Source: an uncultured Verrucomicrobiae bacterium
GTDB taxonomy: Bacteria; Verrucomicrobiota; Verrucomicrobiia; Limisphaerales; JAFGQR01
Reading direction: 5' to 3'
Assembly: GCA_963788655.1 (NCBI GenBank)
Contig: CAWBHS010000048.1
Location: forward strand, 1 to 45,642
Length of the DNA: 45,642 nucleotides
The position numbers and the translations under genes were made by a program. The notes below the pieces were generated by a model. The model had not been told where the DNA came from and ran no database searches. It saw only the letters and a list, made by a program, of their open reading frames with translations. Shown piece after piece: positions 1 to 44,389 of the stretch (the first letter of the stretch is position 1; every line of letters begins with the position of its first letter).

Positions 1-100
1 TGCAGCGAACCGCCGCCCCGCTGGGCAGTCGGACGGTTCAGATAATTTGTCAGCGACTCTTGCAGCCGACCGGGCGTTTCCGGCGGCGGTCGCTGAGCTC
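1..100 (+). other. Integron attC site: left end cut by the window edge, right end interrupted by IS110 (remainder at 1806-1817)
   Basis: TGCAGCGAACCGCCGCC (1-17) pairs with GGCGGCGGTCGCTGAGC (82-98). Removing the IS restores GCTGAGC-TCGGC-GTTCGCC, i.e. L', 5-bp spacer and an R' GTT core. Confidence 0.8.
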
Positions 101-129
101 ATCTCTGAGGTGAGCGATCAACCAATTTT

Positions 130-1450
130 TCATTTTTTCTTCGCGGCTTTCGCGCCCTTTTGCTGGCGGCGGGTGTAGGGGTTTTTGCCTAACTCAATCT
201 GATCGAACAACGCCACGATCGGGCTGCCGTGGCGACGCAGCGCTGCCTCATAACGCGCCTCGTCATAGACCTCGTGGCGCTGCCAGCAGCACCAGAGGAT
301 TCGCTGCCATTTGTAGGCCAGCGCCCGGACCGCGACGTGATGGCTGGCCCCCGCCTCGCGCGGTTGCAAGTAGTAGGCCGCGGCCCAGCGGCTGAACAGG
401 ATCGAGCTGCCGGCATACTCGTGAAAGCTCTGCCGGCAAAACTTCGGACAGAGATAGCGCCGATGGACGTGGCGCTTGTTGCCACTCTCTTTGGTGACCG
501 GGGCGATGCCACTGTAGCACTGGAGACTGACGACCGTGGGAAAACGCTCGCGCTGGCTGCCCATCGTGGCCAACAACCGGGGCGCCAACACCGAGCCGGC
601 TCCGGGCAGGTTCTTGAAGATGACGTAATCGGGGTGCGCCACAAAGCGCTTCTTGATCTGCTGATCGTAGGTGTCAATGGCCGCGACGACCAGTTGGAGT
701 TGGCGACAAATCAATTGCACGCGCAAGGCGTAGGTTTCCACCAGGGCCGATTCCTCGGTGAGAGCAATCGCCTGCCTAATACATTGGAGCCGCTGGTTCA
801 GCCGGGAAGCGCTGTGGGAATTGTGCTGGCGATAGAATTGTTTGAGGGTGGCTGGCTTGACCTTTTTGATCGCCGCCAGCGTGGGCCATTTCAACAACAA
901 ATCGGTGGCCAGCGGCCGCCACAGTTCCTCGCCGCACAGCGTCAACGCCTGCGGAAAATAAGCCTTTAAGAGGGCTTGCAAGCGGTTGGTCAACTCGGTG
1001 CGTTCGTCCACCACCGCGCGGCGGTGGGTGACGGTTTGTTGGAGGTGGCGGGTGGCGCTGTCCTCGGGCCGCCACACGGTCAGTTTGTCGTGGTGGGTCA
1101 GCAGCAGTTCGGCTAAATAATAGGCGTCCTGGGTGTCGTCCTTGGCGCGGCTGGTGACGAAGGCTTCGCGGAATTTTTTGAGCGTCATCGGGTTGATGGC
1201 GTAGAGGGTGATCCAGGCATAGCCTTCCAGGAAGGCGAGGAGGTTGGCGGCGGGTTGTTCCAGGCAGATCGCCACCCGGGCCTGGGGATGTTGCTGGCGC
1301 AGTTGGGCCAGCCAGTCGTGGAGGGCTTCGGGAGTGGTGCCGATGGTTTGGTTGGCACGCTGGTGGGTGCGAGTCAATCGTGTGGAGATCGGCGTTGGCA
1401 TCGGAGCGGTCCAGGCCGATGACCAGGTCATAGGGATAATCTTGTTTCAT
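130..1450 (-). CDS. IS110 family transposase/recombinase (one frameshift near 1373)
   Basis: N-terminus MKQDYPYDLVIGLDRSD (frame of ORF 776..1450) continues in ORF 130..1431 with ICLEQP, AKDDTQDA, LPGAGSVLA, YSGIAPVTKESG and ALAYKWQRILW. These match the RuvC-like DEDD and Tnp_20 motifs. Confidence 0.92.
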
Positions 1451-1489
1451 CGTCGAGTCATTCGTGGTTTATGGTTAATGTGGTTTTCC

Positions 1490-1795
1490 CGCAGGCTTGA
1501 CCCGGCGACGGCAATATAGAAGAGTTCTGACTGCAAGCGCGAACGCCCTCTGAGTAGTCGTTAGAGGGTGCAAGCCCGCCCGGCGGGCCGGTCGATAAAG
1601 CTCAAAGTCGTCCAGGCGACTGGTCGTTCGCAGACCTGGCCCGCCGAGGCGGGAAAACCGGGATAGCATACGGCAGAACATCAACGGATGCGAATAAGAA
1701 AGTATCATCATAATCATGTCGGGCGGCGCAGTGATTCACCGGCGGCTGCGGCGGAGCAACGCGGAGCGCGCCTGGCCACCGGTGAATAACTGCGG
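1490..1795 (-). ncRNA. Putative IS110 bridge RNA in the left non-coding end (approximate limits)
   Basis: Long 5' stem-loop (1727-1794). Internal-loop hairpin 1586-1641 whose loop strands match the target flanks. Donor-like matches at 1548-1554 and 1514-1519. Confidence 0.7.
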
Positions 1796-1825
1796 ATAAC
1801 CTATATCGGCGTTCGCCAGAAATGT

Positions 1826-2205
1826 ATGCCAAATGGTAAGGGATCCATCGATTGCCGATATTGCGTTTACGCATGGCCGGCGGACGACAAGTGGCCGATA
1901 CTTTTCGGGTCACGGCTGAAGTGTCTCTACCATCAGCAGCGCCTACCGCAGCCCACTGAGCCAGGAGCACATCGATTCTGCATCAACATCCAAGCCAATG
2001 AAACTTGGTATCAGAAGAAGGAGGGATGCACATCTATTGGCCGTTCTTGCGGCAGGCCGCGCGATTTGGGGCCGAACTCGAGGCCGGAATGCTTTACGAA
2101 TATACGACGCAAGACTCCGAGGGCTTGAATACACTCTCTCAGCTCCGTGAGCCCGATTACGAGAATCGCACCTGGAAACCAGTAAAGGGCAAACCAGACG
2201 CTTGA
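1826..2205 (+). CDS. Gene cassette protein, hypothetical, Cys-containing (frameshift near 2010)
   Basis: ATG shortly after R' GTTCGCC. ORFs 1826..2128 and 2005..2205 overlap, and the stop lies inside the next attC. Confidence 0.6.
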
Positions 2206-2255
2206 GGTAATCTGGCTCCGCGGACTTCGCCAGATACCTCAGCTTTACGTTCGGC
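2188..2255 (+). other. Integron attC site
   Basis: GGCAAAC-CAGAC-GCTTGAG-GTAATCTGGC...GCCAGATAC-CTCAGC-TTTAC-GTTCGGC: R''/L''/L'/R' layout with 5-bp spacers and an extra base in L''. Confidence 0.8.
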
Positions 2256-2329
2256 AACTATTGAGATATTCGATGTCACCGAAAGTATTCTCAATTATGA
2301 CAGTTTGGATCGCATGGTAAAATCCCGCC

Positions 2330-2653
2330 ATGAAAGTTATCTATCACGTCGGCACGGAGCTTACTCTTAAGACGAGAGTGAGTTCAGGATCACTCATCTT
2401 CCAAGATGAGGCGGCCAGCATCTCTGGCAGTTCGCCGTTGACTATTCCATTTTCGGAGATTATCAACGTCGAGATGTTCCGGCTTCACGGATTAGGACAC
2501 ATGATTAAGCTGGTCTGCAAGGAGCGCACGATTTTCCTCACTGTTGTTCGCATCAATCTTTTCGGGTATTTTCTCATCATTAGCTTTTTCAGGGCCGGAG
2601 AGCTTTATGAGACATTCAAACAACGAGTTCGGAAGATTGTGGCCGAACAGTGA
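2330..2653 (+). CDS. Gene cassette protein, hypothetical (107 aa)
   Basis: Lower-GC ORF after the attC. It ends over GCCGAAC (2642-2648), the exact complement of the preceding R' GTTCGGC. The rest of that attC is not recognisable. Confidence 0.75.
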   Translation: MKVIYHVGTELTLKTRVSSGSLIFQDEAASISGSSPLTIPFSEIINVEMFRLHGLGHMIKLVCKERTIFLTVVRINLFGYFLIISFFRAGELYETFKQRVRKIVAEQ

Positions 2654-3058
2654 AAATGCTTCGGGGGTATCTGGCTTCTAAAAAACAAGCTGGCCCAATT
2701 GTCCTCGGCACAAAAGGGCCAGCGTGATCGTCATCCGCGCTGCGGTTCACCGTTTACCGGAGTACCAAAGACACCTCCCCTCGGTATGTTTTTACCAAGC
2801 TGAAAAATCCAATGCGTTCGTGGAATAATGGCGTCGCCACGGTGGCTAAGAAAGGGAACCTCGGTATGACCGGAAGAACCCGCCGCGGCAGCCCAAGCGG
2901 GTTCTTCCGGCGGCAACAAACACGAACCTGAACCGACAGTTTGAGCGTAAGTCTTCACAATGTACTGTCCGAGCAACGTCTGTTAACCGGGTGCTTAAAC
3001 GCAGGAGGTGTGCCATCTCAAAAATGCAAAACGCCGAATTGCCGGTGATTGCCGCTTA

Positions 3059-3252
3059 ACCGTGACTATTCAGTAGGACAGGCGTCCCGCCTGTCCCGAA
3101 CAAGTGCAAACCAACAATTTGTATCACGGCGCCGCGAGTCTTTCTATGTCACCAAACGGTGAGGATGCCTTGGGCTATTCGAGACAGGCGAGACGCCTTT
3201 CCTACCACGCCGAACTGCCTCATCGCAGCACCAGCCACTGAATTGATACGGC
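3059..3252. mobile_element. 194-bp MITE-like element, copy 1 (REP doublet cargo)
   Basis: Near-identical to 4467-4660 and 34548-34741. Ends ACCGTGACTATTCA/TGAATTGATACGGC, with TTA on both flanks. Confidence 0.85.
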
Positions 3253-3255
3253 TTA

Positions 3256-3521: not shown

Positions 3522-4466
3522 ATGAAAAGCATTACTCTGGGCAAAAGCTCCTTGAAAACCAGCCGGCTGGCCTACGGTTGCTGGCGAATTGCCGGCACGT
3601 GGGATCCCGCGGGAGTCACCAAAGAATCAATGGCCGCAGGCCGTCGCGCCGTGATCGCCGCGTATGAGGCGGGTTACACGCTGTTCGACCACGCGGATAT
3701 TTATTGCGGGGGCATCGCAGAAACGGTTTTTGGCCAAGTGCTCAAGGAAGTCTCGGGAATGCGAAAACGGGTGGTCATCGCGTCGAAGTGCGGTATCCGC
3801 TTTGCGGGGGAACCCGAGAAACAATCCCCGTTTCGCTACGATTTCTCCGCCGACCACATCCTCCGGTCTTGCGACCAAAGCCTCAAACGGCTTGGCATCG
3901 AGCGGATCGACCTGTACCAGTTGCACCGCCCCGACTACTTGATGGAACCGGAGGAAGTGGCCAAGGCTTTCGCGAAATTGAAAAAGGCGGGCAAAGTCCG
4001 CGAATTCGGCGTGAGTAACTTTCGTCCGTCGCAAGTGACCTTGTTGCAGGCCGCTTGTTCCATGCGCCTGCAAGTGAACCAGGTGGAACTCAGCCTCGCC
4101 CGGCTGGTGTGCTTCGAGGACGGCACGTTGGACCAATGTCTCGAGCAGGAAATCACCCCGCTGGCCTGGAGTCCTTTGGCGGCGGGTAAATTGGGCCAGG
4201 GTGCCAAACGGCTGCTGCCATCGCAAAAGGCCTATCAGGTCAATCGCATCATCCGCGAGTTGGACGCCCAAGCCAAAGCGTACGGAACCACGCGCTCGAC
4301 GTTGGCGCTGGCTTGGTTGCTCAAACATCCCAGCGGCATCGTTCCGATCGTGGGTTCGACCAAGCCGGAGAACATTCGGCAGGCTGCCGAGGCGGTAAAC
4401 CTCGAGATGTCCCGCGAAGACTGGTATCGCTTACTGGAAGCCGCCCGCGGAGAACGCTTGCCCTGA
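3522..4466 (+). CDS. Aldo/keto reductase (YdhF-like)
   Basis: SRLAYGCW, FDHADIY, SKCGI, IDLYQLHRPD, GVSNF, PIVGSTKPENI motifs. Confidence 0.93.
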   Translation: MKSITLGKSSLKTSRLAYGCWRIAGTWDPAGVTKESMAAGRRAVIAAYEAGYTLFDHADIYCGGIAETVFGQVLKEVSGMRKRVVIASKCGIRFAGEPEKQSPFRYDFSADHILRSCDQSLKRLGIERIDLYQLHRPDYLMEPEEVAKAFAKLKKAGKVREFGVSNFRPSQVTLLQAACSMRLQVNQVELSLARLVCFEDGTLDQCLEQEITPLAWSPLAAGKLGQGAKRLLPSQKAYQVNRIIRELDAQAKAYGTTRSTLALAWLLKHPSGIVPIVGSTKPENIRQAAEAVNLEMSREDWYRLLEAARGERLP

Positions 4467-4660
4467 GGCGCAACGATTCAGTAGGACAGGCGTCCCGCCG
4501 GTCCCGGACGAGTGCAAACCAACAACTTGTATCACGGCGCCGTGAGTCTTTCTATGTCACCAAACGGCGAGGTTGTCTTGGGCTTTTCGAGACAGGCGAG
4601 ACGCCTGTCCTACCACGCCGAACTGCCTCATCGCAGCACCAGCCATTGAATTGATACGGC
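4467..4660. mobile_element. 194-bp MITE-like element, copy 2
   Basis: Same sequence family. Flanked by TGA/TGA; the left TGA is the reductase stop codon. Confidence 0.85.
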
Positions 4661-4913
4661 TGAGGCGCGTTCTGCTCGCGCTCAATCCTGCGGCTGTTCC
4701 GGTTCTTGCTCGTTGGTGGCGATCATTTTGGGTCGCGACGACGGCCGCACTGGTTGACCCGTGGTTTTCGACTGCACCAACAAGGCTTGAACGCACCCGC
4801 CCGACAACTGCGATCAACTTGCGCATTGGCAAGCGGCGACGGGCAGGTTACAACGCTGCCGCGTTTTAGCGCGCAATATGCACCGGCTCGAATTGTAAAT
4901 CGGTTACGACTGA

Positions 4914-11360: not shown

Positions 11361-11437
11361 TGGTCGGAGCGACAGGATTTGAACCTGCAACGTCTTGGTC
11401 CCAAACCAAGTGCTCTACCAAGCTGAGCTACGCTCCG
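11361..11437 (-). tRNA. tRNA-Pro (anticodon TGG)
   Basis: Minus strand CGGAGCGTAGCTCAGCTTGGTAGAGC...CTTGG-TTTGGGA-CCAAG...GGTTCAAATCC...CTCCGACCA. Confidence 0.97.
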
Positions 11438-34181: not shown

Positions 34182-34547
34182 CCATGAGAATGGATTCGCG
34201 GTTCGCGAATTTACCCGGCGTCAGCGCAACAGCTTTTGTGCCGAAGCGGCTTACGTAGTTCTACCGGCCTAATGTCCGTGACGATGGGTTTTGAGCAGAA
34301 ACGGCTCAAACCTCTCGAGGTATGGGTTCCCGGAAGGAGAAGAAGAGAATAAACGACTGGCTGCGGTTAACGGCATCAGCAAGTGCGATTCTGGGATTCA
34401 CTGACCCGTGAACAGATCGCGCGGAAGTCGAACCAGTACTTTGCTTTGCCTGGCCCCTTCGTTTGCTTCGTTTGCTTCAATGTTCCGTGTCAGGCGCATG
34501 TCCGAGCGGCAATTCCGCCCTGCCAAGCATCGAATTGAAACAACTAA

Positions 34548-34741
34548 GCCGTGACTATTCAGTAGGACAGGCGTCCCGCCTGTCCCGAACGAGTGCAAAC
34601 CAACGACTTGTATCACGGCGCCGCGAGTATTTCTATGTCACCAAACGGTGAGGATGCCATAGGCTATTCGAGACAGGCGAGACGCCTGTCCTACCACGCC
34701 GAACTGCCTCATCGCCGCATCAGCCACTGAATTGATACGGC
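34548..34741. mobile_element. 194-bp MITE-like element, copy 3
   Basis: GCCGTGACTATTCA...TGAATTGATACGGC flanked by TAA/TAA, at the stop of the response regulator. Confidence 0.85.
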
Positions 34742-35118
34742 TAAGCGGCCTTTGCCGTTCGCAGCACTCGACGGATATCCATCAGCAATTGGCTCCGCAC
34801 CAACATCTTGCTGGTGAACGCATCCGCTCCCTGTGCGCGGGCTCGTTCCCATAGATCCTCTTGATAGCCGAAGCCGGTAAACACAATCACGGGCAGATCC
34901 GGCCGGGTGGCCTTGAGTTCGCCCAGCAAGCTCAAACCATCTTCCCCGCCAAGATCAACGTCGAGCACCGCCAGATCCACCGGGCCGGCGGCGACCGCTG
35001 CAAGCGCTTCCTGCCGGTTGTGCGCCGCCGTCACCCGGTAGCCATGCTCCTTCAGGAACAAGGCTACGGCGGTCTGAATTTCGTGGTCATCATCGACCAC
35101 CAGGATGTCGTGAGTCAT
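34741..35118 (-). CDS. Single-domain response regulator
   Basis: ILVVDDD, VLDVDL...DGL, VIVFTG, FTSK. Confidence 0.9.
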   Translation of the reverse strand: MTHDILVVDDDHEIQTAVALFLKEHGYRVTAAHNRQEALAAVAAGPVDLAVLDVDLGGEDGLSLLGELKATRPDLPVIVFTGFGYQEDLWERARAQGADAFTSKMLVRSQLLMDIRRVLRTAKAA

Positions 35119-35274: not shown

Positions 35275-36106
35275 TTAAAGGCCGGCGTCGGCGCCGTACG
35301 GCACCAACTCGGCCATACGCCAGTGCCCCGTCCCCATCCGTTGGCACGATCCCAGTGTGGCCATCCGTTCGGAAACCGCTCCGTACGTTGTCAATGCGGT
35401 TCCGCTTACTCCGACAATGCCACCCCTAAAGTCCAAACGGATCAACGATCGAAATCGGGTTTCCATCAAACGCAACGCAGAAGTTCAACCCGCCCGAGAA
35501 TCCCGCCGGCTCAAGATTCAGGAACTGGCACAGGTACGGGTTGTAGTAACTGCTCCGCATGCAAAGGAGGCCGTTGGCATCGGTCTGCACGCCGTAGCGT
35601 CCGTTGCATAGAAACGGAGGTTCGTGCCGCTCCGGCACGTCAGGCTGCCGTAGGCCGAGTATTCGGCGCGGTCGGTCACGTTGCCATTGGCGTCGTAGCC
35701 GTAGCGGATCACGTAGCCATCGGCGTTGGTGAAAGCGGTCACGCGGTCGGTACGCGTCAAAGCCCCAGGTGTTGGTCTGCGTCCCCTCGCTGACGGTGGT
35801 GAGGTTGTTGTTCGCGTCGTAGCGGTAGTACGTGGTGCCCACCCCATCGGTGCGGTTGGTCAGGCGGCTGCGGGCGTCGTAATAGAAATTGGCGGTGTTC
35901 GTGCTGGGTTCGATGACCGTCTGCAACCGGCCTCGATTGTTCCAGCCTTGTGAGGTGACCCGGCTCAGCGGCGTGGTGGTATTCGTCAGCCGATTGGCGG
36001 CGTCAAAGTGGAGAAACAGCCTCCGCTCTGGCGGATAGCCAAAGGCCGACACCGCCAGCAGCAGGAACAAAGCGAATTGAAGCCGGCGCTTCATGGGCTT
36101 ATCCAA
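35275..36106 (-). pseudogene. Degenerate Rhs remnant (leader, YD repeats, eroded core end)
   Basis: YD repeats split across frames. YNPYLCQFLNLEPAGFSGGLN...NPISIVDPFGL is followed directly by a stop. Confidence 0.8.
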
Positions 36107-36381
36107 AGCGCCAACATAGCTGGAACAGTCGCATCCCTGACCGAAAGCGAACCGGGCGTGCTGAGTGAAGAACGCTCAACCACACTCTTGTGTTGACCGG
36201 GACAGTGCCACGAGGCGGGCAAGGCATTGGGGTGTTGAGTGTGAGTAGGTGAGCCTTCCTTCGCAGTCGAAGCGTTCGTAACTGAGAAGCTCTTCCAGCG
36301 TTTTAAATTCATTGGCAACTCGGGTGCTATGGTTGGCGTGTGAAGTTCATTTTAACCGTCGCCAAATGTTCGTGGTGGCCC

Positions 36382-36675
36382 TCATCCGAGGCGGACGACT
36401 TCGCCTGTTGCGATTTCCTTGCCTTCCCAAAGTCTCACCGGTTTTCCCGGTGACAGCTTCGACAGCACCAGATCGGGATTTAGGAACTTGACCGGCAACT
36501 CGTAGCTTTCGCCAAGCTGGAGCGTCTGAGCGTTGACGAGCAGCCGGCAGTCGAATGCTTCTCCCTCGATAAAGAGCGGACACCCGTAAGGCGTTTCGCC
36601 GATAACAATTGGGCCTTGCCGACCGCCTTCTGCCGTGGTCTTCAAGCGCACTTTGATAAACGCGTCTGGATTCAT
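36382..36675 (-). CDS. Putative immunity protein resembling EF-Tu domain III
   Basis: Directly after orphan toxin 3; EGGRQGP...GESYELPVKFLNP...EGKEIATGEV. Confidence 0.7.
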   Translation of the reverse strand: MNPDAFIKVRLKTTAEGGRQGPIVIGETPYGCPLFIEGEAFDCRLLVNAQTLQLGESYELPVKFLNPDLVLSKLSPGKPVRLWEGKEIATGEVVRLG

Positions 36676-36683
36676 ATTCGTGT

Positions 36684-37103
36684 TTATGGGCGGGGAATTG
36701 GCATTGTGGGGAGCACCTTTGGAGTGAGTCCAGGCAGGCGATTGTTCGGGATCACCCAAGCGGGAATGCCGCGGTCAACCGTTGCCGGTGTGAGACCTTC
36801 AAAGATGCTGTTTGGCACTCTGGTCTGGATGAGCGTGTAGGGAGGATCACCAAAGCCGCGCACCGCCTGTTTTGCGTACGAAGAAGCTGCCTCAGCCGAA
36901 GTCGTAAAATACTTTCCTTCCGCCGAACCGAGGTTTCTCAAAATGTTGTTTGCCTGAATGTCCGCTAGTTCTGCCGGTCCTACGGCGCGGTAGAGTGTTG
37001 TCTCTGCGGCAAGAGTGGAATGCCAAATTTCGGCATTTCCCTTCATCGCCGGGCCGCTCAGAAAAAGGAGCAGCGTCAGCAGGCTTACGATGATGTTCGC
37101 CAT
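36684..37103 (-). CDS. Orphan toxin 3 with hydrophobic leader; possible ADP-ribosyltransferase-like tip
   Basis: Leader MANIIVSLLTLLLFLSG...HSTLAAE, then LYRAVGPAELADI...EGKYFTTS. Confidence 0.65.
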   Translation of the reverse strand: MANIIVSLLTLLLFLSGPAMKGNAEIWHSTLAAETTLYRAVGPAELADIQANNILRNLGSAEGKYFTTSAEAASSYAKQAVRGFGDPPYTLIQTRVPNSIFEGLTPATVDRGIPAWVIPNNRLPGLTPKVLPTMPIPRP

Positions 37104-37465
37104 TATTTCACAAATTCGCGGTCGATGGTCTTTCCAGTATCGAGATCAAGCTTCAGCATCCAAGAACTCCAAGTCCATGCACGCAATCCGTCAGCCGTCA
37201 TTTCAAATTCGACGAACGCGTCGGGTTGATCGGAAAGTTCGGCTTTCCAGATCACATTTCCATCACGTCCAACGCAGAACAGGTTTTCAAAAACTTCCTG
37301 TTTGCTCGCCATTCTATCCAGCAAGATCAAACACCTGTCGGTATCAATTGGCAAAGCTGCGTCCACTTTCATTCCTTGAAAGCTGCCGTTCCAACTGACT
37401 GTGCCATTATCCGCTCGAAAGATGGCGAACTCGCGATTCGGAATCGAAAAAATTTCGGTAGGCAT
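37103..37465 (-). CDS. Putative immunity protein for orphan toxin 2
   Basis: Starts 3 bp after the toxin stop; NLFC...GNVIWKAE...DLDTGK...FVK. Confidence 0.75.
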   Translation of the reverse strand: MPTEIFSIPNREFAIFRADNGTVSWNGSFQGMKVDAALPIDTDRCLILLDRMASKQEVFENLFCVGRDGNVIWKAELSDQPDAFVEFEMTADGLRAWTWSSWMLKLDLDTGKTIDREFVK

Positions 37466-37468
37466 AAA

Positions 37469-38083
37469 TTAAGGGCGCAATGGAATACCTGGTCCAAAGT
37501 TCGCGTTCGGGATTTGTTCCAAGAGTTGAACTTGAACACCGCCGCCGGTGAGACCGTTAGCACCGGCTGCTGTTCCAATCTGATAGCGAGTCCCGCCCGG
37601 AACAAGAACCTCTGAGTAGAACTGCGCCGTGTTCGCTGAAGGTAGAGCAAGACTTTCGATGGCTGACGCCGCGGAGGTGGGACGGATTGGTGAGAGCCAC
37701 GGTCCTGCTTGTCGTGAGCCGCCACCCCAAACCCGATACATCGTCGTATCCGAAGCAGCCGTTACGCTTCGTATCTCGCCTGCCCAAGGCTGATACCCTG
37801 TGTATGCCGGAAGAAGTCTCGTCCCTGTTCTTTCTGCGGCAAAAAATTCCGCAAATTTGGAAAAGCTGACGCAATCCCCAGGCGTTCCTTTTTTCTTTTC
37901 GCCCGTGGTGGGCACAGAGGCGGGGTCATAGCCACCGGCGGATTCGCCGTTGCTGTAGTAGGCAACTATTGTTTGGTTTTCCGCGTCGTAAGCGAAGATG
38001 GAGGGCGGAGCGAAAGTTGTGGAGGCAAAACATGCCCACAAAAGCAGCACAAAGCGCAGTCGTAGCCAAAGCGCGTTCATCAT
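37469..38083 (-). CDS. Orphan toxin 2 with leader; TNT/Tne2-like NAD(P)+ glycohydrolase-type tip
   Basis: YRVWGG...GPWLS...LALP...VPGGT...GTAA...GGGVQ motif string after FFAAE. Confidence 0.7.
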   Translation of the reverse strand: MMNALWLRLRFVLLLWACFASTTFAPPSIFAYDAENQTIVAYYSNGESAGGYDPASVPTTGEKKKGTPGDCVSFSKFAEFFAAERTGTRLLPAYTGYQPWAGEIRSVTAASDTTMYRVWGGGSRQAGPWLSPIRPTSAASAIESLALPSANTAQFYSEVLVPGGTRYQIGTAAGANGLTGGGVQVQLLEQIPNANFGPGIPLRP

Positions 38084-38502
38084 AATGGAAGTGAATCGGC
38101 TCGGTCGCTTAACAGGCTCTGACCGGCCTGTTTCAACAACTCAACCAATCCATCGGTCATCTGTTCGAGAGAAGACTTACCAGCCTCGCTCGATCCGCGC
38201 GGTCTTCCCCGATAACCCGCATGGTTAACAAGGTGTGTGAAGATGTCTGACGAATATCCTCCTTCCCAATTCCGCTTAATCTGGCCGTCCCGAACCCTCA
38301 CAACCTGTCCGTCAACGCACTGATCGCGCACATCGAGACTGAAGATGAAACCGACATTATTGCCCAAGTAAACCACCGTGCCGCTCGTCGGAGTTGTCTC
38401 CTCCAGGCTCGGCACGCGGTGAAATCCCTTGCCCTCTAGGAAGCTGAATCGGTCCAGAGCCAACGTCCTAAATTGCTCGACTGTGATTTGTGAATTGCTC
38501 AT
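38080..38502 (-). CDS. Putative immunity protein for orphan toxin 1
   Basis: 140-aa ORF starting 14 bp after the toxin stop, with AAGCGGAG upstream. Confidence 0.7.
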   Translation of the reverse strand: MSNSQITVEQFRTLALDRFSFLEGKGFHRVPSLEETTPTSGTVVYLGNNVGFIFSLDVRDQCVDGQVVRVRDGQIKRNWEGGYSSDIFTHLVNHAGYRGRPRGSSEAGKSSLEQMTDGLVELLKQAGQSLLSDRADSLPL

Positions 38503-38516
38503 GGTTTAAGCTCCGC

Positions 38517-38957
38517 TTAAGGGTCAAAGCCCGGCACACCACCCTGATATTTTCCTGTGCGCTCGTAAATGCGCTGGTAGTTGTCGTAGTTGAGAAGCTG
38601 TTGACGTTCGCCCCCATAAACAGCACTGGGAGGACGTCCGAGCGCTGGGTCGATGCGATTCTGCAGTCGTCGGCCAAAGGCAGGGCCGATGTCGATGAAT
38701 TCTCGACCTTGTGCCTTCATCGTCGCAATGAACTGGTCGTTCAGAGGCTGTGACCACTGCCTGCCCGCCAACCAATCGTCAATTGTATGACCGCCGATGC
38801 TCCGAGAATACGCATTAACCCGCGTCATCTGCTCCCCAATGACAACGGGTGCGTTCTTTGCGGCAAGTGTGGAATGCCCGTCGTAGGCAAAGCCCGTCAA
38901 AAAGAGGAGCGTCGTAGCCGCGAACCACACCCACCGGCGGACGAAATTACAAGACAT
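38517..38957 (-). CDS. Orphan toxin 1 with leader; unassigned toxin-tip family
   Basis: Leader MSCNFVRRWVWFAATTLLFLTGFAYDGHSTLAAK, then VIGEQMTRV...FIDIGP...SAVYGGE. Confidence 0.65.
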   Translation of the reverse strand: MSCNFVRRWVWFAATTLLFLTGFAYDGHSTLAAKNAPVVIGEQMTRVNAYSRSIGGHTIDDWLAGRQWSQPLNDQFIATMKAQGREFIDIGPAFGRRLQNRIDPALGRPPSAVYGGERQQLLNYDNYQRIYERTGKYQGGVPGFDP

Positions 38958-39285
38958 GAATGTCATCGAGTTCAATCCTAAAGCCCTTTTCCCCAGCGAT
39001 GAGCGTGATCCCGATTGAAAGATCGGAACGTCCTTCCTCATGCGTCCAGAGCGGCATCGTAACCGACCACTGCCTGGGTTGCGCGTCTCGGACCTCAACA
39101 ATATCCATCAGTCCAAAAGCATCATCAGGTGGTAAGACCAATTTCCGGCCATAGTCACTGATGGCCTTGGCCATTTCGTGAGCGGAAAGGCGCTGCCTCC
39201 CCGTCAGCGTTTCCAGTTCGGCATACTTGCCTGCGACCAAATGCTCAATGACTTGGCGGACGGGCTGTTTTAGTCGTTCGTTCAT
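38947..39285 (-). CDS. Putative cognate immunity protein of the full-length Rhs
   Basis: 112-aa ORF starting 7 bp after the Rhs stop; LWTHEEGRSDLS...DDIHVL. Confidence 0.78.
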   Translation of the reverse strand: MNERLKQPVRQVIEHLVAGKYAELETLTGRQRLSAHEMAKAISDYGRKLVLPPDDAFGLMDIVEVRDAQPRQWSVTMPLWTHEEGRSDLSIGITLIAGEKGFRIELDDIHVL

Positions 39286-39292
39286 AGCAGAC

Positions 39293-42200
39293 TTAACGGT
39301 TGCCAGGAATGCGTGTTGGAGTTGATGGAGTCGCGCCAATGCTCCTGAAGTAGGCATCCGATTCAGCGATGATTTGGCGAGCTTGCGCCTCCGAGTAGCC
39401 GGATTGCCGAAGCGCCTTGTATCCGATTCGCATCTCGGCTGCGAGCGTTCCGCCACCGGCCTGACGCTGAACCTGAGTCGCAATGTAATGCGGAGTTCCC
39501 CCTGCTGTGGATGGTCCGGGAAGCTGAACACCCGGCGCAAGCTGCGTGTTGTAACCAGGCAAATCTCTCACAGCCGCATCTTGCACTACGTGATGGGCAT
39601 CTCTCAGACCGGCAGCCCGCAAATCGCCTACGGTTGACGTCAGTCGCGTCTCTGCGGCCGTCACCCGCTCCACGAGGTTGCGGTTACTGAGGCTGTTCTC
39701 GGGGCATCGGGTTGAAGGAGGTTTAAGGGGAAGCTCGAGCTGTTCAGCCCGGGGTGCCCGCAGTTCCGTCAGGCCAGGCGAACGTAATCCGCGCTGAAGT
39801 GATTTCTCCAGCATTTCAATCCGCTGCCGTCGGCTGAACATCTGCCTCGGCTCGGCAAAGCCCCGGGTTTCAAGCTGAATCTCAATTTGAACTGCCAAGG
39901 GATCGCGGGGTGGCGCGGGCTCAGCGTACTCGGCGACGCCTTGAAGGCCATAGGGATCAATTGCGTTGACCGGATTATTCTTGACCAGTGCATACAGATG
40001 GATGCCTCCGGCTTCGCCGAGTGGGTCTGGCGTCAACCAACGCTGCAAACTCGGATCGTAAAACCGCTGGCCATAACCGTAAACTCCAAGCAAGGAGAAA
40101 TATTCCTTGCTCGAAAAGCGATACGGATTGGCCGCCGCTTGTGGACCAGCGGCCATCAGCAGGTTGCCATACGGATCATAGTGATACCGCGCGACAATTC
40201 GTTGATGCTCGTTGAGCAGCGCCGTGATGTTCCCGCCTCGATCAGCGTGGTAGTAAAAGGTCTCTTGCCCGACCGCAGGTTCGGACACGGTTCGCGCCAA
40301 CAGCCCGCCGATGCCGCCGGCCCCGTCCAGAGTGCCGCTCAGGTCAACGCCGCGGGTGTAACTGACAACGCGCTGGGGCGTATTGGTGGAAATCCGGGGA
40401 TCAAAGTGGCGCTCCTGGAGCACCAATGATCCGTCATACACATACCGAACTTCGTTCGTCGGCTGCCAGTTAGGGCTGCTCCAACTGCATTCGCGCCGCA
40501 CGCGCAGTCGGTTCAGACCGTCATAGACCAATTCGCTGCGCCACTCATTGGACACCGTGACCGCCGTCAACTGATCGGCATCGTCGTATTCGAAAGTGCG
40601 CCGACCATCGCTGGTGAGATTGCCGTTGAGGTCATATTGGAAACCAACCGATTCCGGCAGGTAGGCACTGATTTCGTTGGTGGCGCGGTAACCGTCCTTC
40701 CAGTTCGCCTCGGTATGAAACGTGTTCCAGCCGCTGGTAAGAGTGAGCCCCTCCGCCGCATACGTGCCGTCAGCATAACTGACGGCGTTTGTTCCATTCA
40801 CCTTTACGCTGAGCGGCAGCCGACCGCGCAGGTGGAACCACCAACCGCTTGCGGTATAGGTGTTGGATCGCGTCACTGAACTTAACTGGTCCAGGTTGTT
40901 GTCGGGAACAAACGTCTGGCTAAACCCGTTCCGGACGCGGGTTACGAGGTTCCCCGCCTGGTCGTAGTCGTAGCTGATTTGCTCGTTCAACCGTGACACG
41001 CTGTTGGACTCGTAGCCGGTGGCGGTCTTCAGTTGCCCCAGCGCGTCATAGCCGTAATGAACGCAATTGCTGGCCCAAAAGGTTTGGTTGGTTGCTTCCC
41101 CAAAAAGGTTCACCCCGTAAGCGTGCTGGTTAAGAACCGAATCGTCGGAATTAAGAAGCACTGTGAGATTTAGCCGTGCCATCGAATCGAAGGCATTGGT
41201 GATAACGCCGCCATTGGGAAAGGACAGGCTCTTGCGTAATGGCCACCGGCTTGATTCGTAGGCGTAGCTAAAGGTTCCCGAGGAGGAATTCAGGTCTTTT
41301 AGGCGCCGCGCCGTATCAAAAATGTATTGGTTCGTCCAAGCGGAGCCGACCAATTGCTCCAGGTTTAGATTTGTCCGCACCTGGCTGGCATAGGCGTAGG
41401 TCACCGTGTCGCTGGCCCAGGGACCGTCTTCCGCCAGCAACTGGCCGACTTCGGTGTAGCTCAATTCGGTGGTGCCGACCGCATCAGCCAGACTGGTGAG
41501 ACGATTCACCTGGTCGTATGTCATGGCGATGTCTGCACTGGTCGCGTAGTCAATGTTGGTCAGGTTCCCCACGTCGTCATAATGGTAAGTCGTGAGGCCC
41601 TTGGCGGCGGTCCACCGGCTAATCAGGCGTCCATCGGCATCGTAGCCGTTGGTGAGAATCAGCGCGTTGGCCGCATTGGTCTTGCTGAGAACCTGGCCAT
41701 AAACATCATAGCCCCATTTTCTGACTTGGTTGCGTCCGTCCTGGAGGGCCACCAAGTCGCCCGCCGCGTTGTAGGTAAAGCGCACTTCTTCAAGGTTGGC
41801 GTTGGTTACCACCAACAGGCGGCGTGCTTCGTCATGGTCAAAGAGGGTGACCCGGCTCGATGTGCCCGCAGCTCCGTCCTGGGTGTAATTCGTGAGGCCG
41901 CGCGGCCCGTAGAAATAGTGTTCCACGCCACCGTCCGGCCAAGCCCGGCTCAGAATGCGGTCTAGCGAATCGTAAGCGTTGGTAACCGTTACTCCGGCGG
42001 CATCGGTGATGTTGGTGGGCCGGTCTTTACGGTCATAAATTAGGCCAAATACCTGGCCACCGGCGTTCCACGCGGAAGCGGGCAAACCCAGGTGGGTATA
42101 GTAATTGGTCACGCTGTAGCCGCCATTATCCCGAAGGTTTGTCAGCCATCCCAACCGGTTGTATGTCAGGTTTACAATGCGACCATCGGGATAGGTGATG

Positions 42201-44389
42201 TTCGTTCGGCGGGTTTGCAGATCGTAATCAAAAATTGTCGTTTTGTTCCGGGCATCAGTGACGGATTCCAGCGCGCCACAGTCGCAGTAGCCAAACGACG
42301 TGACGTTGGTGAGTGCGTTGGTTACCGTAAGAAGTTGCCGAACCGGACTGTATTCGAAACGCGTCCAGATACCCAGTCGGTCTTTTACCCCAACGACGTC
42401 CAGCCGATTATAGACACGCTCGATGTAGGATTGATCCGGAAAGGTGACGTTGGTGAGCCGTTGCAGCTTGTCCCAGGCGTAGGTGACGGTCAAATCGCGG
42501 GCATCGGTGGCGGTGTGGACCAAATCATTTGTGTACGTGAACGTGCGCGTGGCTTGGATTTGTTGGTCTTCGATTTCCTTCAAGCGCCCCACACTGGCGC
42601 CTTCCCAAGCTTGGTAGTAGGTCAACCACGTTGTTAGGCCGCTTGGCTTTTCAATACTGCCAAGCTGGTGGGTGTTTTGATCATAATTATACGTCCACAC
42701 CTCGCCTACAGCATTGGTGAACTTGGTCATTTGGTGGTGATCGTTGTAGCCGTAGCCCGCCAGAAATTCGCCACTGGGACCGTAATGGGTGACGAGATCA
42801 ACCAAGTTCGCCGCATAGACGAAATCATTGGTGCGCCGAAGACTGTTGTCGTAGGTTTCCACTAACAGGGTGACATTTCCGAGCGCGTTTCGCTGCTGCC
42901 AGGTAAAGCGTTGCTGCGCGCCCGGCTGCACCCGGATGGTCGCCGCCACCTGGGAATTGATGCCCTCGTAATCGTCCTGGTACTTTCCCGGATAATCGTA
43001 CCAGGTGAACTGACCGGTTTCCGCGCCGTCGGGGCTGGGGGAGCGCTCACAATTCAAGGTTGGACTGACGGTATTGTCCGGGGCGTGGGCCACGCGCAAC
43101 CATTGGCGCATTCGGCCTTTCTCAAAATCGGCGCTGCTAAACTCGGTTGGGGTGTTCGTGGACAAGGCCGCAAATTGCCGCTTATTCCAGTAAAAACTAT
43201 TTCGCCAGCGCATATCGTCGTCAGACAAGGTCCCAAGCGGCGAATACGTGGGCGTCAGCCCGTTGTAGTAGTGCGTCGGCAGGAAGTCGCTACTGTCATC
43301 CATGTACAGGTACAGTTGCGTCGCATTATCGGGCGTGGTGATTTGCAGCGAGCGATTGATGACATTTTGCCCGCCCAGGAAATCGGAGTTGCCGCCGGTC
43401 ACCTGGAAGCTCGTCACTCCATACGGCGTGGTCAGGTTGGTGATCGCACCCGCGTCATCGTAAACGAAACGGCTAAACAGTCCCTCCGGATCCACGATGT
43501 TGGTGAGGTATCCTGAAGCATCGTAATACAGGAAGTTGGTACGTCCGTAAGCGTCTTCGACACTCGTGATTTGCGAACTGAAATTGGTGTCCGCATAGCG
43601 AACATAATTGGTTCGGCCATCGACATCGATTACCCGGACAAGACGCGTGACTAAAACCACACCCTCGGTCTGCGACTCGTATTCAAAGCGGGTGCTGAAA
43701 CCCACCGGGTCAATTCTTTCCGAAAGGAAATACGTTTCCCCGTTACTCGTCAGCACGTGGTATTGATAAAGCTCTTTCCGGCCGTCAGCGTGATCGAGAG
43801 CGAAGCCCACGAGGTCGGGAGTGCTGTTGAAAACCGGCCGCAGCCACGTCTGGGCATACGGGTCGAGTTTGGCGCCGCCCTCAGCCTGCGAGCAGCAGTC
43901 CGCGTTGGTGTACCGTTTCACGCCTCCACCAGCCAGATAAAGGTCGGCCAGGAGGTAATTCACGCAATTGGTCGCCGCCGCTCCCGGAACACACTGGGCC
44001 GCTTGCAGGCCTTCAAAATAAATCCGTGACATCCACGAGCATTCCCACTGCGGCCCGACGTTGAAGACGCTGGGAGTGTTGTCGCGCTTATCACGCTGCG
44101 TGTAACTCAAATAACGCACTGGTGCTCCCTTGCTGGGCTGATAGCTTAGCGGCTCATCTTCCATCCAGAGTGAAATGAACGGCTCGCTGACCCACCACCG
44201 CGCCATACCCTCACAATCCTCCGAGGCTTCCAGCCCGTTATATCCGGCCAGTCCCGGGGCATGTTCATCATCTTCGTCCTTGATTTTGTTATCGCCACCG
44301 GCCCAGCACCAGCTCGCTATGACACCACACGCCAGTAGCAACGTTGCCCATCGCTTAACGATTTCGAAATTGTGAATCAAACCTTTCAT
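39293..44389 (-). CDS. Rhs/YD-repeat polymorphic toxin with signal-peptide-like N-terminus and probable HNH-type nuclease tip
   Basis: Many YD repeats; core RFYDPSLQRWLTPDP...NPVNAIDPYGL; tip DAHHVVQDAA...PHYIATQVQR. Confidence 0.93.
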   Translation of the reverse strand: MKGLIHNFEIVKRWATLLLACGVIASWCWAGGDNKIKDEDDEHAPGLAGYNGLEASEDCEGMARWWVSEPFISLWMEDEPLSYQPSKGAPVRYLSYTQRDKRDNTPSVFNVGPQWECSWMSRIYFEGLQAAQCVPGAAATNCVNYLLADLYLAGGGVKRYTNADCCSQAEGGAKLDPYAQTWLRPVFNSTPDLVGFALDHADGRKELYQYHVLTSNGETYFLSERIDPVGFSTRFEYESQTEGVVLVTRLVRVIDVDGRTNYVRYADTNFSSQITSVEDAYGRTNFLYYDASGYLTNIVDPEGLFSRFVYDDAGAITNLTTPYGVTSFQVTGGNSDFLGGQNVINRSLQITTPDNATQLYLYMDDSSDFLPTHYYNGLTPTYSPLGTLSDDDMRWRNSFYWNKRQFAALSTNTPTEFSSADFEKGRMRQWLRVAHAPDNTVSPTLNCERSPSPDGAETGQFTWYDYPGKYQDDYEGINSQVAATIRVQPGAQQRFTWQQRNALGNVTLLVETYDNSLRRTNDFVYAANLVDLVTHYGPSGEFLAGYGYNDHHQMTKFTNAVGEVWTYNYDQNTHQLGSIEKPSGLTTWLTYYQAWEGASVGRLKEIEDQQIQATRTFTYTNDLVHTATDARDLTVTYAWDKLQRLTNVTFPDQSYIERVYNRLDVVGVKDRLGIWTRFEYSPVRQLLTVTNALTNVTSFGYCDCGALESVTDARNKTTIFDYDLQTRRTNITYPDGRIVNLTYNRLGWLTNLRDNGGYSVTNYYTHLGLPASAWNAGGQVFGLIYDRKDRPTNITDAAGVTVTNAYDSLDRILSRAWPDGGVEHYFYGPRGLTNYTQDGAAGTSSRVTLFDHDEARRLLVVTNANLEEVRFTYNAAGDLVALQDGRNQVRKWGYDVYGQVLSKTNAANALILTNGYDADGRLISRWTAAKGLTTYHYDDVGNLTNIDYATSADIAMTYDQVNRLTSLADAVGTTELSYTEVGQLLAEDGPWASDTVTYAYASQVRTNLNLEQLVGSAWTNQYIFDTARRLKDLNSSSGTFSYAYESSRWPLRKSLSFPNGGVITNAFDSMARLNLTVLLNSDDSVLNQHAYGVNLFGEATNQTFWASNCVHYGYDALGQLKTATGYESNSVSRLNEQISYDYDQAGNLVTRVRNGFSQTFVPDNNLDQLSSVTRSNTYTASGWWFHLRGRLPLSVKVNGTNAVSYADGTYAAEGLTLTSGWNTFHTEANWKDGYRATNEISAYLPESVGFQYDLNGNLTSDGRRTFEYDDADQLTAVTVSNEWRSELVYDGLNRLRVRRECSWSSPNWQPTNEVRYVYDGSLVLQERHFDPRISTNTPQRVVSYTRGVDLSGTLDGAGGIGGLLARTVSEPAVGQETFYYHADRGGNITALLNEHQRIVARYHYDPYGNLLMAAGPQAAANPYRFSSKEYFSLLGVYGYGQRFYDPSLQRWLTPDPLGEAGGIHLYALVKNNPVNAIDPYGLQGVAEYAEPAPPRDPLAVQIEIQLETRGFAEPRQMFSRRQRIEMLEKSLQRGLRSPGLTELRAPRAEQLELPLKPPSTRCPENSLSNRNLVERVTAAETRLTSTVGDLRAAGLRDAHHVVQDAAVRDLPGYNTQLAPGVQLPGPSTAGGTPHYIATQVQRQAGGGTLAAEMRIGYKALRQSGYSEAQARQIIAESDAYFRSIGATPSTPTRIPGNR

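Follow-up and report, generated by a model that had tools for sequence, protein, structure and literature searches.

The noncoding left end of an IS110-family insertion sequence was analysed in a 45,642-nt stretch of contig CAWBHS010000048.1 from an uncultured Verrucomicrobiae bacterium (the window, at its full length). Very probably, this region encodes the bridge RNA (seekRNA) of the element, with the R''-L'' junction of integron attC sites as the target of the lineage. In the window, four guide strands match the flanks and ends of the element; as a set, each on its proper loop strand and all in the expected order, these matches are not a product of chance. Judging from the sequences compared, decisive support for the guide reading comes from the relatives of the element. 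Transcription of the RNA, its binding by the recombinase and its requirement for recombination are predicted.

The element and its predicted bridge RNA

The element is read on the minus strand and occupies positions 1805-101 (approximately 1705 bp), with GA flanking it on both sides. The left junction reads ...GGCGAACGCC-GA-TATAGGTTATCC..., TATAGG standing directly after GA, and the right junction reads ...CACCTCAGAGAT-GA-GCTCAGCGACC..., with CCTCAGAGAT immediately before GA. Junction models with a one-base core or without duplication were weighed against the 2-nt core using uninterrupted sites; a one-base ambiguity of the register remains. The open reading frame (ORF) of the element matched PF01548 (RuvC-like DEDD domain, E 2e-24) and PF02371 (Tnp domain, E 5e-13). 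The first catalytic Asp sits in the first of its two frames (MKQDYPYDLVIGLDRSD...), and the remaining 400-odd residues are in the second frame. The predicted bridge RNA (1655-1491) ends 41 nt upstream of the ATG at 1450.

The protein search gave 1969 relatives at E <= 1e-20 among 8000 candidates scored. Most of them were 427-467 amino acids long and 60-70% identical to the window protein, and one, P0001, was 90% identical and intact. This homologue was recognised by the profile NF033542, "IS110 family RNA-guided transposase" (163 bits, cut-off 140). A search of the PDB with P0001 alone gave no match, because the recombinase is so diverged from those of IS621 and ISCro4 that a family profile is needed; such a profile matched both of these transposases over both domains (E 2e-11 and 3e-12). 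A 22-sequence alignment was scanned against one genome per species, and 62 loci were obtained (cited below by L numbers), mostly from Verrucomicrobiota genome assemblies, together with an Acidobacteriota set 40-50% identical. The left end was placed to the base in 26 loci, and the right end was also placed in 23 of those. In a plasmid collection, no relative at least 60% identical was found, the best matches being "IS110 family transposase" genes approximately 40% identical. The leader was more conserved than the protein, with approximately 85% DNA identity over the part matching window positions 1659-1485.

The preliminary description of this DNA, made from the sequence alone, had proposed a stem with a two-sided internal loop at 1641-1586. 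The strings were found in place: the minus strand reads GGCCAGGTC-TGCGAACGACC-AGTCG-CCTGGA-CGACT-TTGAGCTTTATC-GACCGGCC, followed by CTCAGAG at 1554-1548 and CTATAT at 1519-1514. The minimum-free-energy fold of the 346-nt leader (1800-1455, minus strand) reproduced the stem, two-sided internal loop and stem (z = -4.71), and none of 100 shuffles folded as well. A consensus of 44 base pairs was derived by RNAalifold from a MAFFT alignment of 24 close Verrucomicrobiota copies. The covariance model built from these 24 relatives had exactly one strong match in the window (1655-1491, 166 bits), and intact relatives scored 172-188 bits. The Acidobacteriota loci also gave full-length matches to the model (30-54 bits), in the corresponding position 5' of the transposase gene.

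Covariation was assessed in an alignment of 29 sequences from two phyla (A4). Standard pairs filled 93.2% of the pair cells versus 74.2% in shuffles, and changes on both sides were found in 31 of the 44 base pairs versus 20.9 in shuffles; neither value was reached by any of 500 shuffles. When the partners were slid by 1-3 columns, pairing fell to 28-44%. Compensatory change was detected in 16/16 pairs of helix 1, the long outer stem of the first module, and in 8/9 pairs of the outer stem of the second module. The 5-bp inner stem of the first module was also supported by covariation, and the 4-bp helix CGAC/GUCG was replaced by CGCA/UGCG in the distant clade. The target-binding loop lies 5' of the donor-binding loop, and each internal loop is closed by helices. 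Covariation thus settled the donor-loop fold, which had been called less certain: two outer helices and an inner hairpin close an internal loop. RNAalifold also paired AGAGGG with UCUUCU (helix 6), by which the left donor guide would be buried. This helix was rejected, as three of the nine pairs broke in 13-16 of the 29 sequences and compensatory change was almost absent. Since this pairing is not conserved, the segment is a loop. The coordinates of the features are collected in Table 1.

Table 1. Features of the element and of its insertion site in the window, listed along the minus strand.
Feature	Position	Strand	Remarks
Left target flank CTGGCGAACGCC	1808..1819	-	Holds R''-like GGCGAAC (1817-1811) and GCGAACG (1816-1810); the latter recurs in the left target guide
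Core dinucleotide GA, left copy	1806..1807	-	AA, GA, AG or TA in relatives
Left-end tip TATAGGTTATCCG	1793..1805	-	TATAGG (1805-1800), right donor and -10-like hexamer of the predicted junction promoter
Left subterminal inverted repeat AGGTTATCCG	1802-1793	-	Inside the left-end tip
Conserved 5' hairpin (CCGCAGTTATTCACCGG ... CCGGTGAATCACTGCG)	1727..1794	-	Fold and conservation; between left-end tip and bridge RNA
Predicted bridge RNA, 165 nt	1491..1655	-	Covariance model 166 bits, E ~2e-37; covariation
Target-binding loop module	1575..1653	-	Outer stem 1653-1633 with 1593-1575; inner stem-loop AGUCG-CCUGGA-CGACU 1621-1606
5' loop strand UGCGAACGACC, left target guide	1622..1632	-	Same sense as left flank
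3' loop strand UUGAGCUUUAUC	1594..1605	-	UGAGCUU (1604-1598), right target guide, antisense to core and GCTCA
AU after UGAGCUU in 3' loop strand, candidate handshake guide	within 1594..1605	-	
Donor-binding loop module	1494..1574	-	Outer stem GCUUGCACCC / GGGUCAAGCC; helix CGAC (1560-1557) / GUCG (1509-1506); inner hairpin 1545-1524
Left donor guide ACUCAGAGGG	1546..1555	-	Same sense as right-end tip CCTCAGAGAT
Right donor guide CUAUAUU	1513..1519	-	Antisense to core and TATAG of left-end tip
IS110-family DEDD transposase gene (PF01548, PF02371)	130..1450	-	Two frames, single frameshift near 1370-1355
Right end, short, 29 nt	101..129	-	-35-like TTGATC (121-116), degenerate subterminal repeat TCGCTCACCT (117-108), left donor CTCAGAGAT (109-101)
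Core dinucleotide GA, right copy	99..100	-	Right junction
Right target flank, L''...L' part of the interrupted attC-type site (GCTCAGCGACCGCCGCC ... GGCGGCGGTTCGCTGCA)	1..98	-	Window start cuts it before the expected R'

Guides, targets and core

The probability of the guide matches arising by chance was estimated with 20,000 dinucleotide shuffles of the 165-nt RNA, a match anywhere being allowed. The 7-nt sense match to the left target was reached in 1968 shuffles, the 6-nt antisense match to the right target in 4211, the 7-nt sense match to the left donor in 794 and the 6-nt antisense match to the right donor in 451. Because each match is reachable in 2-21% of shuffles, any one of them alone is weak evidence; two or more occurred together in 704 shuffles, and all four in none. 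In the window, the right target guide shows the 6-nt antisense match plus one G:U. The reading of the second loop strand as antisense to the core and right flank stood, as did the assignment of CUCAGAG (1554-1548) to the left donor and of CUAUAU (1519-1514) to the antisense of the right donor, which holds in relatives as well. The order and polarity of the loops known from IS621, also claimed in the preliminary description, were retained in 26 close and approximately 20 distant relatives. The reconstituted 18-nt target had no match elsewhere in the window with up to three mismatches.

In the close Verrucomicrobiota clade, the 5' strand of the first loop is UGC[U/G]AACGNNN, and in the left flanks GCCTAACGNCC directly precedes the core. 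The 3' strand, U-UGAGC-UU-AU-, is the antisense of RA-GCTCA. Across 24 elements, 112 of 120 positions of the 5-nt right target guide agreed with the right flank, and 17 elements were perfect; none of 20,000 permutations reached this value (mean 101.8). This signal arises because guide and flank switch jointly: UGACC accompanies GGTCA in 3/3 cases (L008, L022 and L056), UGAGU accompanies ACTGA in 3/4 (L001, L014 and L054, not L021), and L025 combines UCACU-UC with GA-AGTGA. In the donor loop, the right-end tip CCTCAGAGGT recurs as CUC(N)AGAGG, and AATATAG has its antisense in CUAUAUU. A compensatory change was found in L023, the sole relative with the left-end tip TATCGG, whose right donor guide reads CGAUAUU. 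In L019, a 32-nt insertion was observed within the right target guide strand (~1310-1345).

The distant Acidobacteriota clade was used for a prediction, which was made from its loop sequences in the model alignment before any end was located. This prediction comprised CC as the core (with GG on the two right-guide strands), ATGCC as the right flank, ACCTCGC-CC at the end of the left flank and TATAG at the start of the left end. The prediction held: the loci read ...GACCTCGCCC|TATAGTTG..., with the TATAG start, and ...CTCAGATGT|CC|ATGCCGCC..., with the ATGCC flank. Exact matches were found for the left target guide (8-9 nt) in 15/19 elements, for the right target guide (7-8 nt) in 18/20 and for the left donor guide (9-10 nt) in 19/20. 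Covarying variants were also present, namely ACCCCACTC in L029, ACCTCCCC in the L033 group, CTTCGCCC in L040 and GGAAU with ATTCC in L027 and L028. Covariation of loops with targets across homologues, the check suggested in the preliminary description, was thereby obtained both from the permutations of the right guide and from the between-clade switch, predicted and then found. The elements of these loci (L027-L062) were inserted at ...GATAGACCTCGC-CC-ATGCCGCC..., a sequence repeated many times per genome (one Vicinamibacterales assembly has eight copies); this sister-clade site does not look like attC.

The same core-binding dinucleotide occurs on the right target and right donor guide strands in 28/29 sequences: UU, GG and AG for the cores RA, CC and CT, respectively, L025 having UC and UU. 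In L046, where the core is CT, the two right-guide strands have AG. The left target guide of the distant clade also reads the core (..CGC-CC); in Verrucomicrobiota, AG, the first two bases of the inner stem, would have to open for the left guides to match it. On the right target guide, the core readers are followed by two bases that complement the final two of the right-end tip, AC with GT; the same complementarity appears as AU with AT in L046, in L023 and in the window, where one extra U stands between.

Both clades conserve a putative split junction promoter, with CTTGAC in the right end, a 17-nt spacer and TATAGG or TATAGT at the left-end tip; in the window it reads TTGATC-17-TATAGG, the -35 element being TTGATC instead of TTGACG. 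The subterminal inverted repeats of relatives, AGGTNATCCG paired with CGGATNACCT, are 10-11 bp long, and those of the distant clade are 10-19 bp long. In the window copy, 4 contiguous complementary bases (AGGT) are left versus 10-11 (one mismatch allowed) in relatives. The distance of these repeats from the tips is constant, 3 nt at the left end and 7 nt at the right end, where the -35 CTTGAC overlaps the repeat; they covary between clades and are long for an element with a left-end-encoded bridge RNA. Short tandem duplications of the left-end tip were observed in L010 (610-703) and L023 (1117-1155). The conserved 5' hairpin was present in 26/26 close relatives, and the window copy shows compensatory change in it; it forms the very start of the predicted junction-promoter transcript, approximately 70 nt 5' of the bridge RNA.

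The steps of the probable mechanism were taken from work on IS621, ISEc21 and ISCro4. The element would excise as a circle, by which the -35 element of the right end would be joined to TATAGG of the left-end tip to give the junction promoter, and this promoter would transcribe the bridge RNA and the transposase gene. Recombinase dimers on the two loops, forming a tetramer, would pair with the circle junction and with attC DNA. The top strands would be exchanged at the 2-nt core via a phosphoserine intermediate, and the Holliday junction would then be resolved. The element would land between R'' and L'', splitting attC.

Nature of the target and alternative explanations

As far as guides and flanks indicate, the programmed target in the Verrucomicrobiota lineage is GCCTAACG-NCC-RA-GCTCA, the R''-L'' junction of an integron attC; the first of these strings stands in relatives at the position of the left target flank of the window. 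The left flanks of relatives carry GCCTAAC, a textbook R'' box, and the cut falls between R'' and L''. NAACG was found 2-5 nt from the crossover in 24/26 related left flanks, 18 of them having TAACG. The right flanks carry a palindromic L''...L' pair, e.g., GCTCAGGCACGCGGG...CCCGCGTTGCCTGCAGC, and a strict GTTRRRY lies 74-146 nt to the right in 10/31 of them; several further right flanks, judged by eye, appear to hold one-off variants of this motif. To judge by these boxes, the insertion splits R'' from L''-L'-R'.

A half-site hidden Markov model (HMM) detected 13 more uninterrupted sites, which were distributed over 10 loci and invariably shared the strand of the element; L051 has three of them at intervals of approximately 500 bp, and L017 and L043 have two apiece. 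The co-oriented sites are approximately 75-150 nt long and 400-600 bp apart, with small ORFs between them, and the bottom strands of uninterrupted sites (L051 and L007) fold as R'/R''-closed hairpins with bulges. The element always has one orientation in this lineage, co-directional with the cassette array. The integrase scan of relatives covered 111 of 189 flank frames, the frames of L013 not being among them. An integron integrase (TIGR02249) was found at L011 2973-3845, scoring 266 bits versus the cut-off of 265 though cut by the locus end. Three other neighbouring Xer/IntI-like tyrosine recombinases were below the cut-off and stood beside IS91-type genes.

Several observations concern the surroundings of these sites. 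The L011 integrase and the element share a strand, the integrase lying approximately 600 bp to the right. One genome holds both the L011 and the L013 copy, whose right flanks are identical over at least 170 nt and whose left flanks differ. Units of a tyrosine recombinase and an IS91-type transposase start right after a GTTGAAC R'-like box belonging to the very attC that is interrupted by the insertion sequence (L003 2479-3797, L023 2921-4027, L004 1-1115 and the right flank of L030), which suggests a second kind of element using attC ends.

The site in the window was compared with that of L016. Its right part (98-1) shows end-to-end pairing with a bulged T (hairpin z = -2.6), corresponding to the L''/L' palindrome, and over its 98 nt has 89% identity with an uninterrupted, complete site of L016 (498-594), which reads GGGCGAACGGCC-AA-GCTCAGCGACC...GGTTCGCTGGAGCGCCCTGGTTAGGCG and ends in GTTAGGC. 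By this homology, the window, read on the minus strand, stops about a dozen bases short of where the R' box is expected. Taken in the family register, the window guides agreed with the uninterrupted L016 attC at 8/9 positions on the left and 7/7 on the right, and the unusual G of the left guide (cGAAC) fits the L016-type attC subtype.

A number of results weigh against the proposal of a bridge RNA aimed at attC. The family left target guide is 9 nt long (CUAACGNCC) and abuts the core. The 7-nt match of the first loop strand to GCGAACG in the left flank, given in the preliminary description, is present, but it is one base out of this register, and the ungapped agreement at the best offset is 3/9. 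The shift arises because the window site reads AACG-CC-GA, the family having AACG-NCC-RA; true loss of the base, imperfection of the target or a homopolymer error in the assembly could each account for it. Within the close clade, there is little variation in the left target guide, and its covariation is weak (180/243 positions versus a permutation mean of 173, reached by 516 of 20,000 permutations; p ~0.03). Its core-reading positions are ambiguous, the bases aligned with the core readers of the distant clade being C and A, which mismatch RA; most copies also have one additional base in the left donor guide. The 29-sequence alignment was fitted to the model, which favours the structure; this concern is limited by the slid controls and by the independent RNAalifold run on the MAFFT alignment. 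A search of the whole window with Rfam 15 at the gathering threshold found only a tRNA (11364-11437) and no match in the region. The promoter scan of window positions 1-2300 gave no sigma-70-like promoter for the integrated state, so that expression would need read-through from the co-oriented cassette side. As for the target, the R''-like box GGCGAAC of the window is noncanonical (5/7 to RYYYAAC), and the R' box lies beyond base 1, outside the window. No integron integrase was found among the 36 ORFs scanned in the 45.6 kb, and the half-site HMM found no second attC-like site in the window at E <= 1, with only the half adjoining the element at E 0.59. The statement that the RNA is programmed against attC is supported by the sites of relatives, but the window itself offers a noncanonical R'' and neither integrase nor second attC.

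These features of the window also speak for another explanation, in which the bridge RNA is real and its target is a generic extragenic palindrome like the repetitive extragenic palindromes (REPs), with coincidental R''/R'-like boxes. The low number of strict GTTRRRY boxes in related right flanks, the different, non-attC-looking target of the sister clade and the targeting of REPs by other IS110/IS1111 elements, as described in two sources (PMC11187229; 10.64898/2026.03.19.712850), point the same way. Nevertheless, this explanation is improbable: the flanks contain canonical GCCTAAC ... GTTAGGC pairs, the L''/L' palindrome and bulged bases, the sites have the length, common orientation, spacing and intervening small ORFs given above, and an integron integrase at gathering score adjoins one copy. 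It is far less probable still that the region belongs to the transposase mRNA as a common 5' leader or a regulatory element, the matches being chance or leftovers of terminal repeats and the target being read by the protein alone. Each window match is indeed singly reachable by chance, and a protein could read the 10-19 bp subterminal inverted repeats. However, the four matches never coincided in the shuffles, guide and flank change together across clades with the core included, the helices keep pairing by compensatory change as the loop strands stay unpaired, and the mechanism has been demonstrated in relatives, according to PMC11208160, PMC11208158 and PMC11187229.

The bridge RNA reading is compatible with the window copy being a dead relic, in which the RNA gene is legible and autonomous movement is lost; the chances of this are about even. 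The transposase frameshift (near residues 34-72), the degenerate right-end repeat and -35 element and the left guide out of register with its own site are the reason why the copy, as sequenced, is probably not autonomous, and 9/23 close relatives are also frameshifted. On the other hand, assembly errors could account both for the indel of one base at a short C run and for the G lacking from ACG(G)CC, the ORF is otherwise open, with 86% identity to an intact homologue, the RNA scores near the intact copies, and mobilisation in trans is possible. The defects of the copy point to either decay or assembly error. Programmed frameshifting, which was raised by the database homologue P0012 also starting out of frame, was rejected because the frameshifts of relatives are at scattered positions.

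Surroundings and relation to known systems

Directly to the left of the element, the G+C content of window positions 2100-2850 is 0.47-0.49 versus 0.59 for the window, the first ~700 bp being low in G+C. The ORFs of this stretch are small, e.g., 2330-2653 and 2005-2205 (both on the plus strand), and gave no Pfam matches; it looks like acquired cassette-type DNA. In relatives, other, distinct IS110-family transposase genes lie within 1.5 kb of the element (L024 3-527, L037 2163-3281, L053 3-668 and 2846-3856), which would mean that attC arrays collect several DEDD-type insertion sequences. In L002 (1-352), a second left end with a bridge RNA and without a full transposase gene stands 1.1 kb upstream of a complete element. 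Elsewhere in the window, a 199-nt repeat occurs in three copies 91-94% identical (3055-3253, 4463-4661 and 34544-34742), the first of them flanked on both sides by CGGTTAAGC; it looks like a small nonautonomous mobile element with target duplication. A large RHS/YD-repeat protein of 1698 amino acids and a second RHS fragment are encoded at 35426-44389 on the minus strand and are followed by several small ORFs without family matches. This layout is usual for polymorphic toxin loci with immunity or orphan modules.

The published systems are compared here as they are presented in the cited papers. IS621 and ISCro4 are IS110-group bridge RNA systems (Durrant et al. 2024, PMC11208160; Hiraizumi et al. 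2024, PMC11208158), the handshake arrangement having been described for IS621 (PMC11208158). The present element resembles them in having the RNA in a long left end upstream of a DEDD and Tnp recombinase, with the target-binding loop preceding the donor-binding loop. Its left guides are likewise in the sense of the top strand, and its right guides are antisense and end in a core-reading dinucleotide. The 9-nt left target guide, which includes the 2-nt core in the distant clade, the predicted junction promoter split between right and left ends and the handshake logic, in which the two bases after the core readers are complementary to positions 6-7 of the other partner, are also shared. In contrast, the recombinase has approximately 445 amino acids versus approximately 326-341, the right target guide has 7 nt versus 4, and there is an extra long 5' hairpin with an approximately 70-nt spacer. 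The core is RA, CC or CT by clade, the target is an apparently structured attC site, and the subterminal inverted repeats of 10-19 bp differ from the 2-3 bp described for the IS110 group. ISEc21, whose seekRNA is of the IS110 type (PMC11187229), is similar in its upstream noncoding region, its circle-junction promoter and the top-strand match located 3' of the bottom-strand match; it differs in its linear target inside IS3-family transposase genes and its transposase of 358 amino acids.

In the IS1111-group elements ISKpn4, ISPst6 and ISPa25, which target attC, the RNA comes after the transposase gene, within a long right end (Siddiquee et al. 2024, PMC11187229). They and the present element are both DEDD-transposase insertion sequences of the wider IS110 family; both are RNA-guided, with a fixed position and orientation near one attC end, a likeness by description and not by exact insertion point. 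The subterminal inverted repeats are also of IS1111-like length, those of relatives lying within the 7-17 bp of the IS1111-attC group. Unlike in these elements, the guide RNA is here upstream of the transposase gene, and the guide pairing with the bottom strand is 5' of that pairing with the top strand, which is the IS110 order and is reversed in IS1111. Moreover, the transposase has approximately 445 amino acids (427-467 in intact relatives) versus 330-350, and the hosts are Verrucomicrobiota environmental assemblies versus Proteobacteria. In the literature searched, attC targeting was described for IS1111-group elements only (PMC11187229, PMC11089894); the supplementary tables of PMC11208160, outside the search, may list relatives.

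It is an evenly balanced proposition that an IS110-group lineage in Verrucomicrobiota specialised on the attC R''-L'' spacer independently of the proteobacterial IS1111-attC elements and that its Acidobacteriota sister clade, with the same scaffold, was reprogrammed in four guides and the core (RA to CC or CT). The independent origin of attC targeting in the Verrucomicrobiota lineage is a plausible but unproven reading. The papers defining the IS1111-attC elements are reportedly those of Tetu and Holmes (2008) and Post and Hall (2009).

Bridge RNAs are expected in most IS110 elements, so that finding one here is in itself unsurprising. What the relatives provide is one scaffold on which guides, cores and handshake positions have been reprogrammed in a clean natural series, together with an IS110-group lineage apparently aimed at integron attC, a target otherwise reported, in the literature searched, only for the IS1111 group. 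This target would be a structured recombination site and bears on the recent idea that target secondary structure adds to the specificity of bridge recombinases. If the proposed specialisation is true, RNA-guided insertion sequences would have adopted attC sites as landing pads on at least two occasions, and the elements would split attC hairpins, freezing cassettes in environmental integrons. With R'' split from the rest of attC, integrase-mediated excision of the neighbouring cassette should be blocked. Therefore, such elements may shape the cassette arrays of soil and freshwater bacteria.

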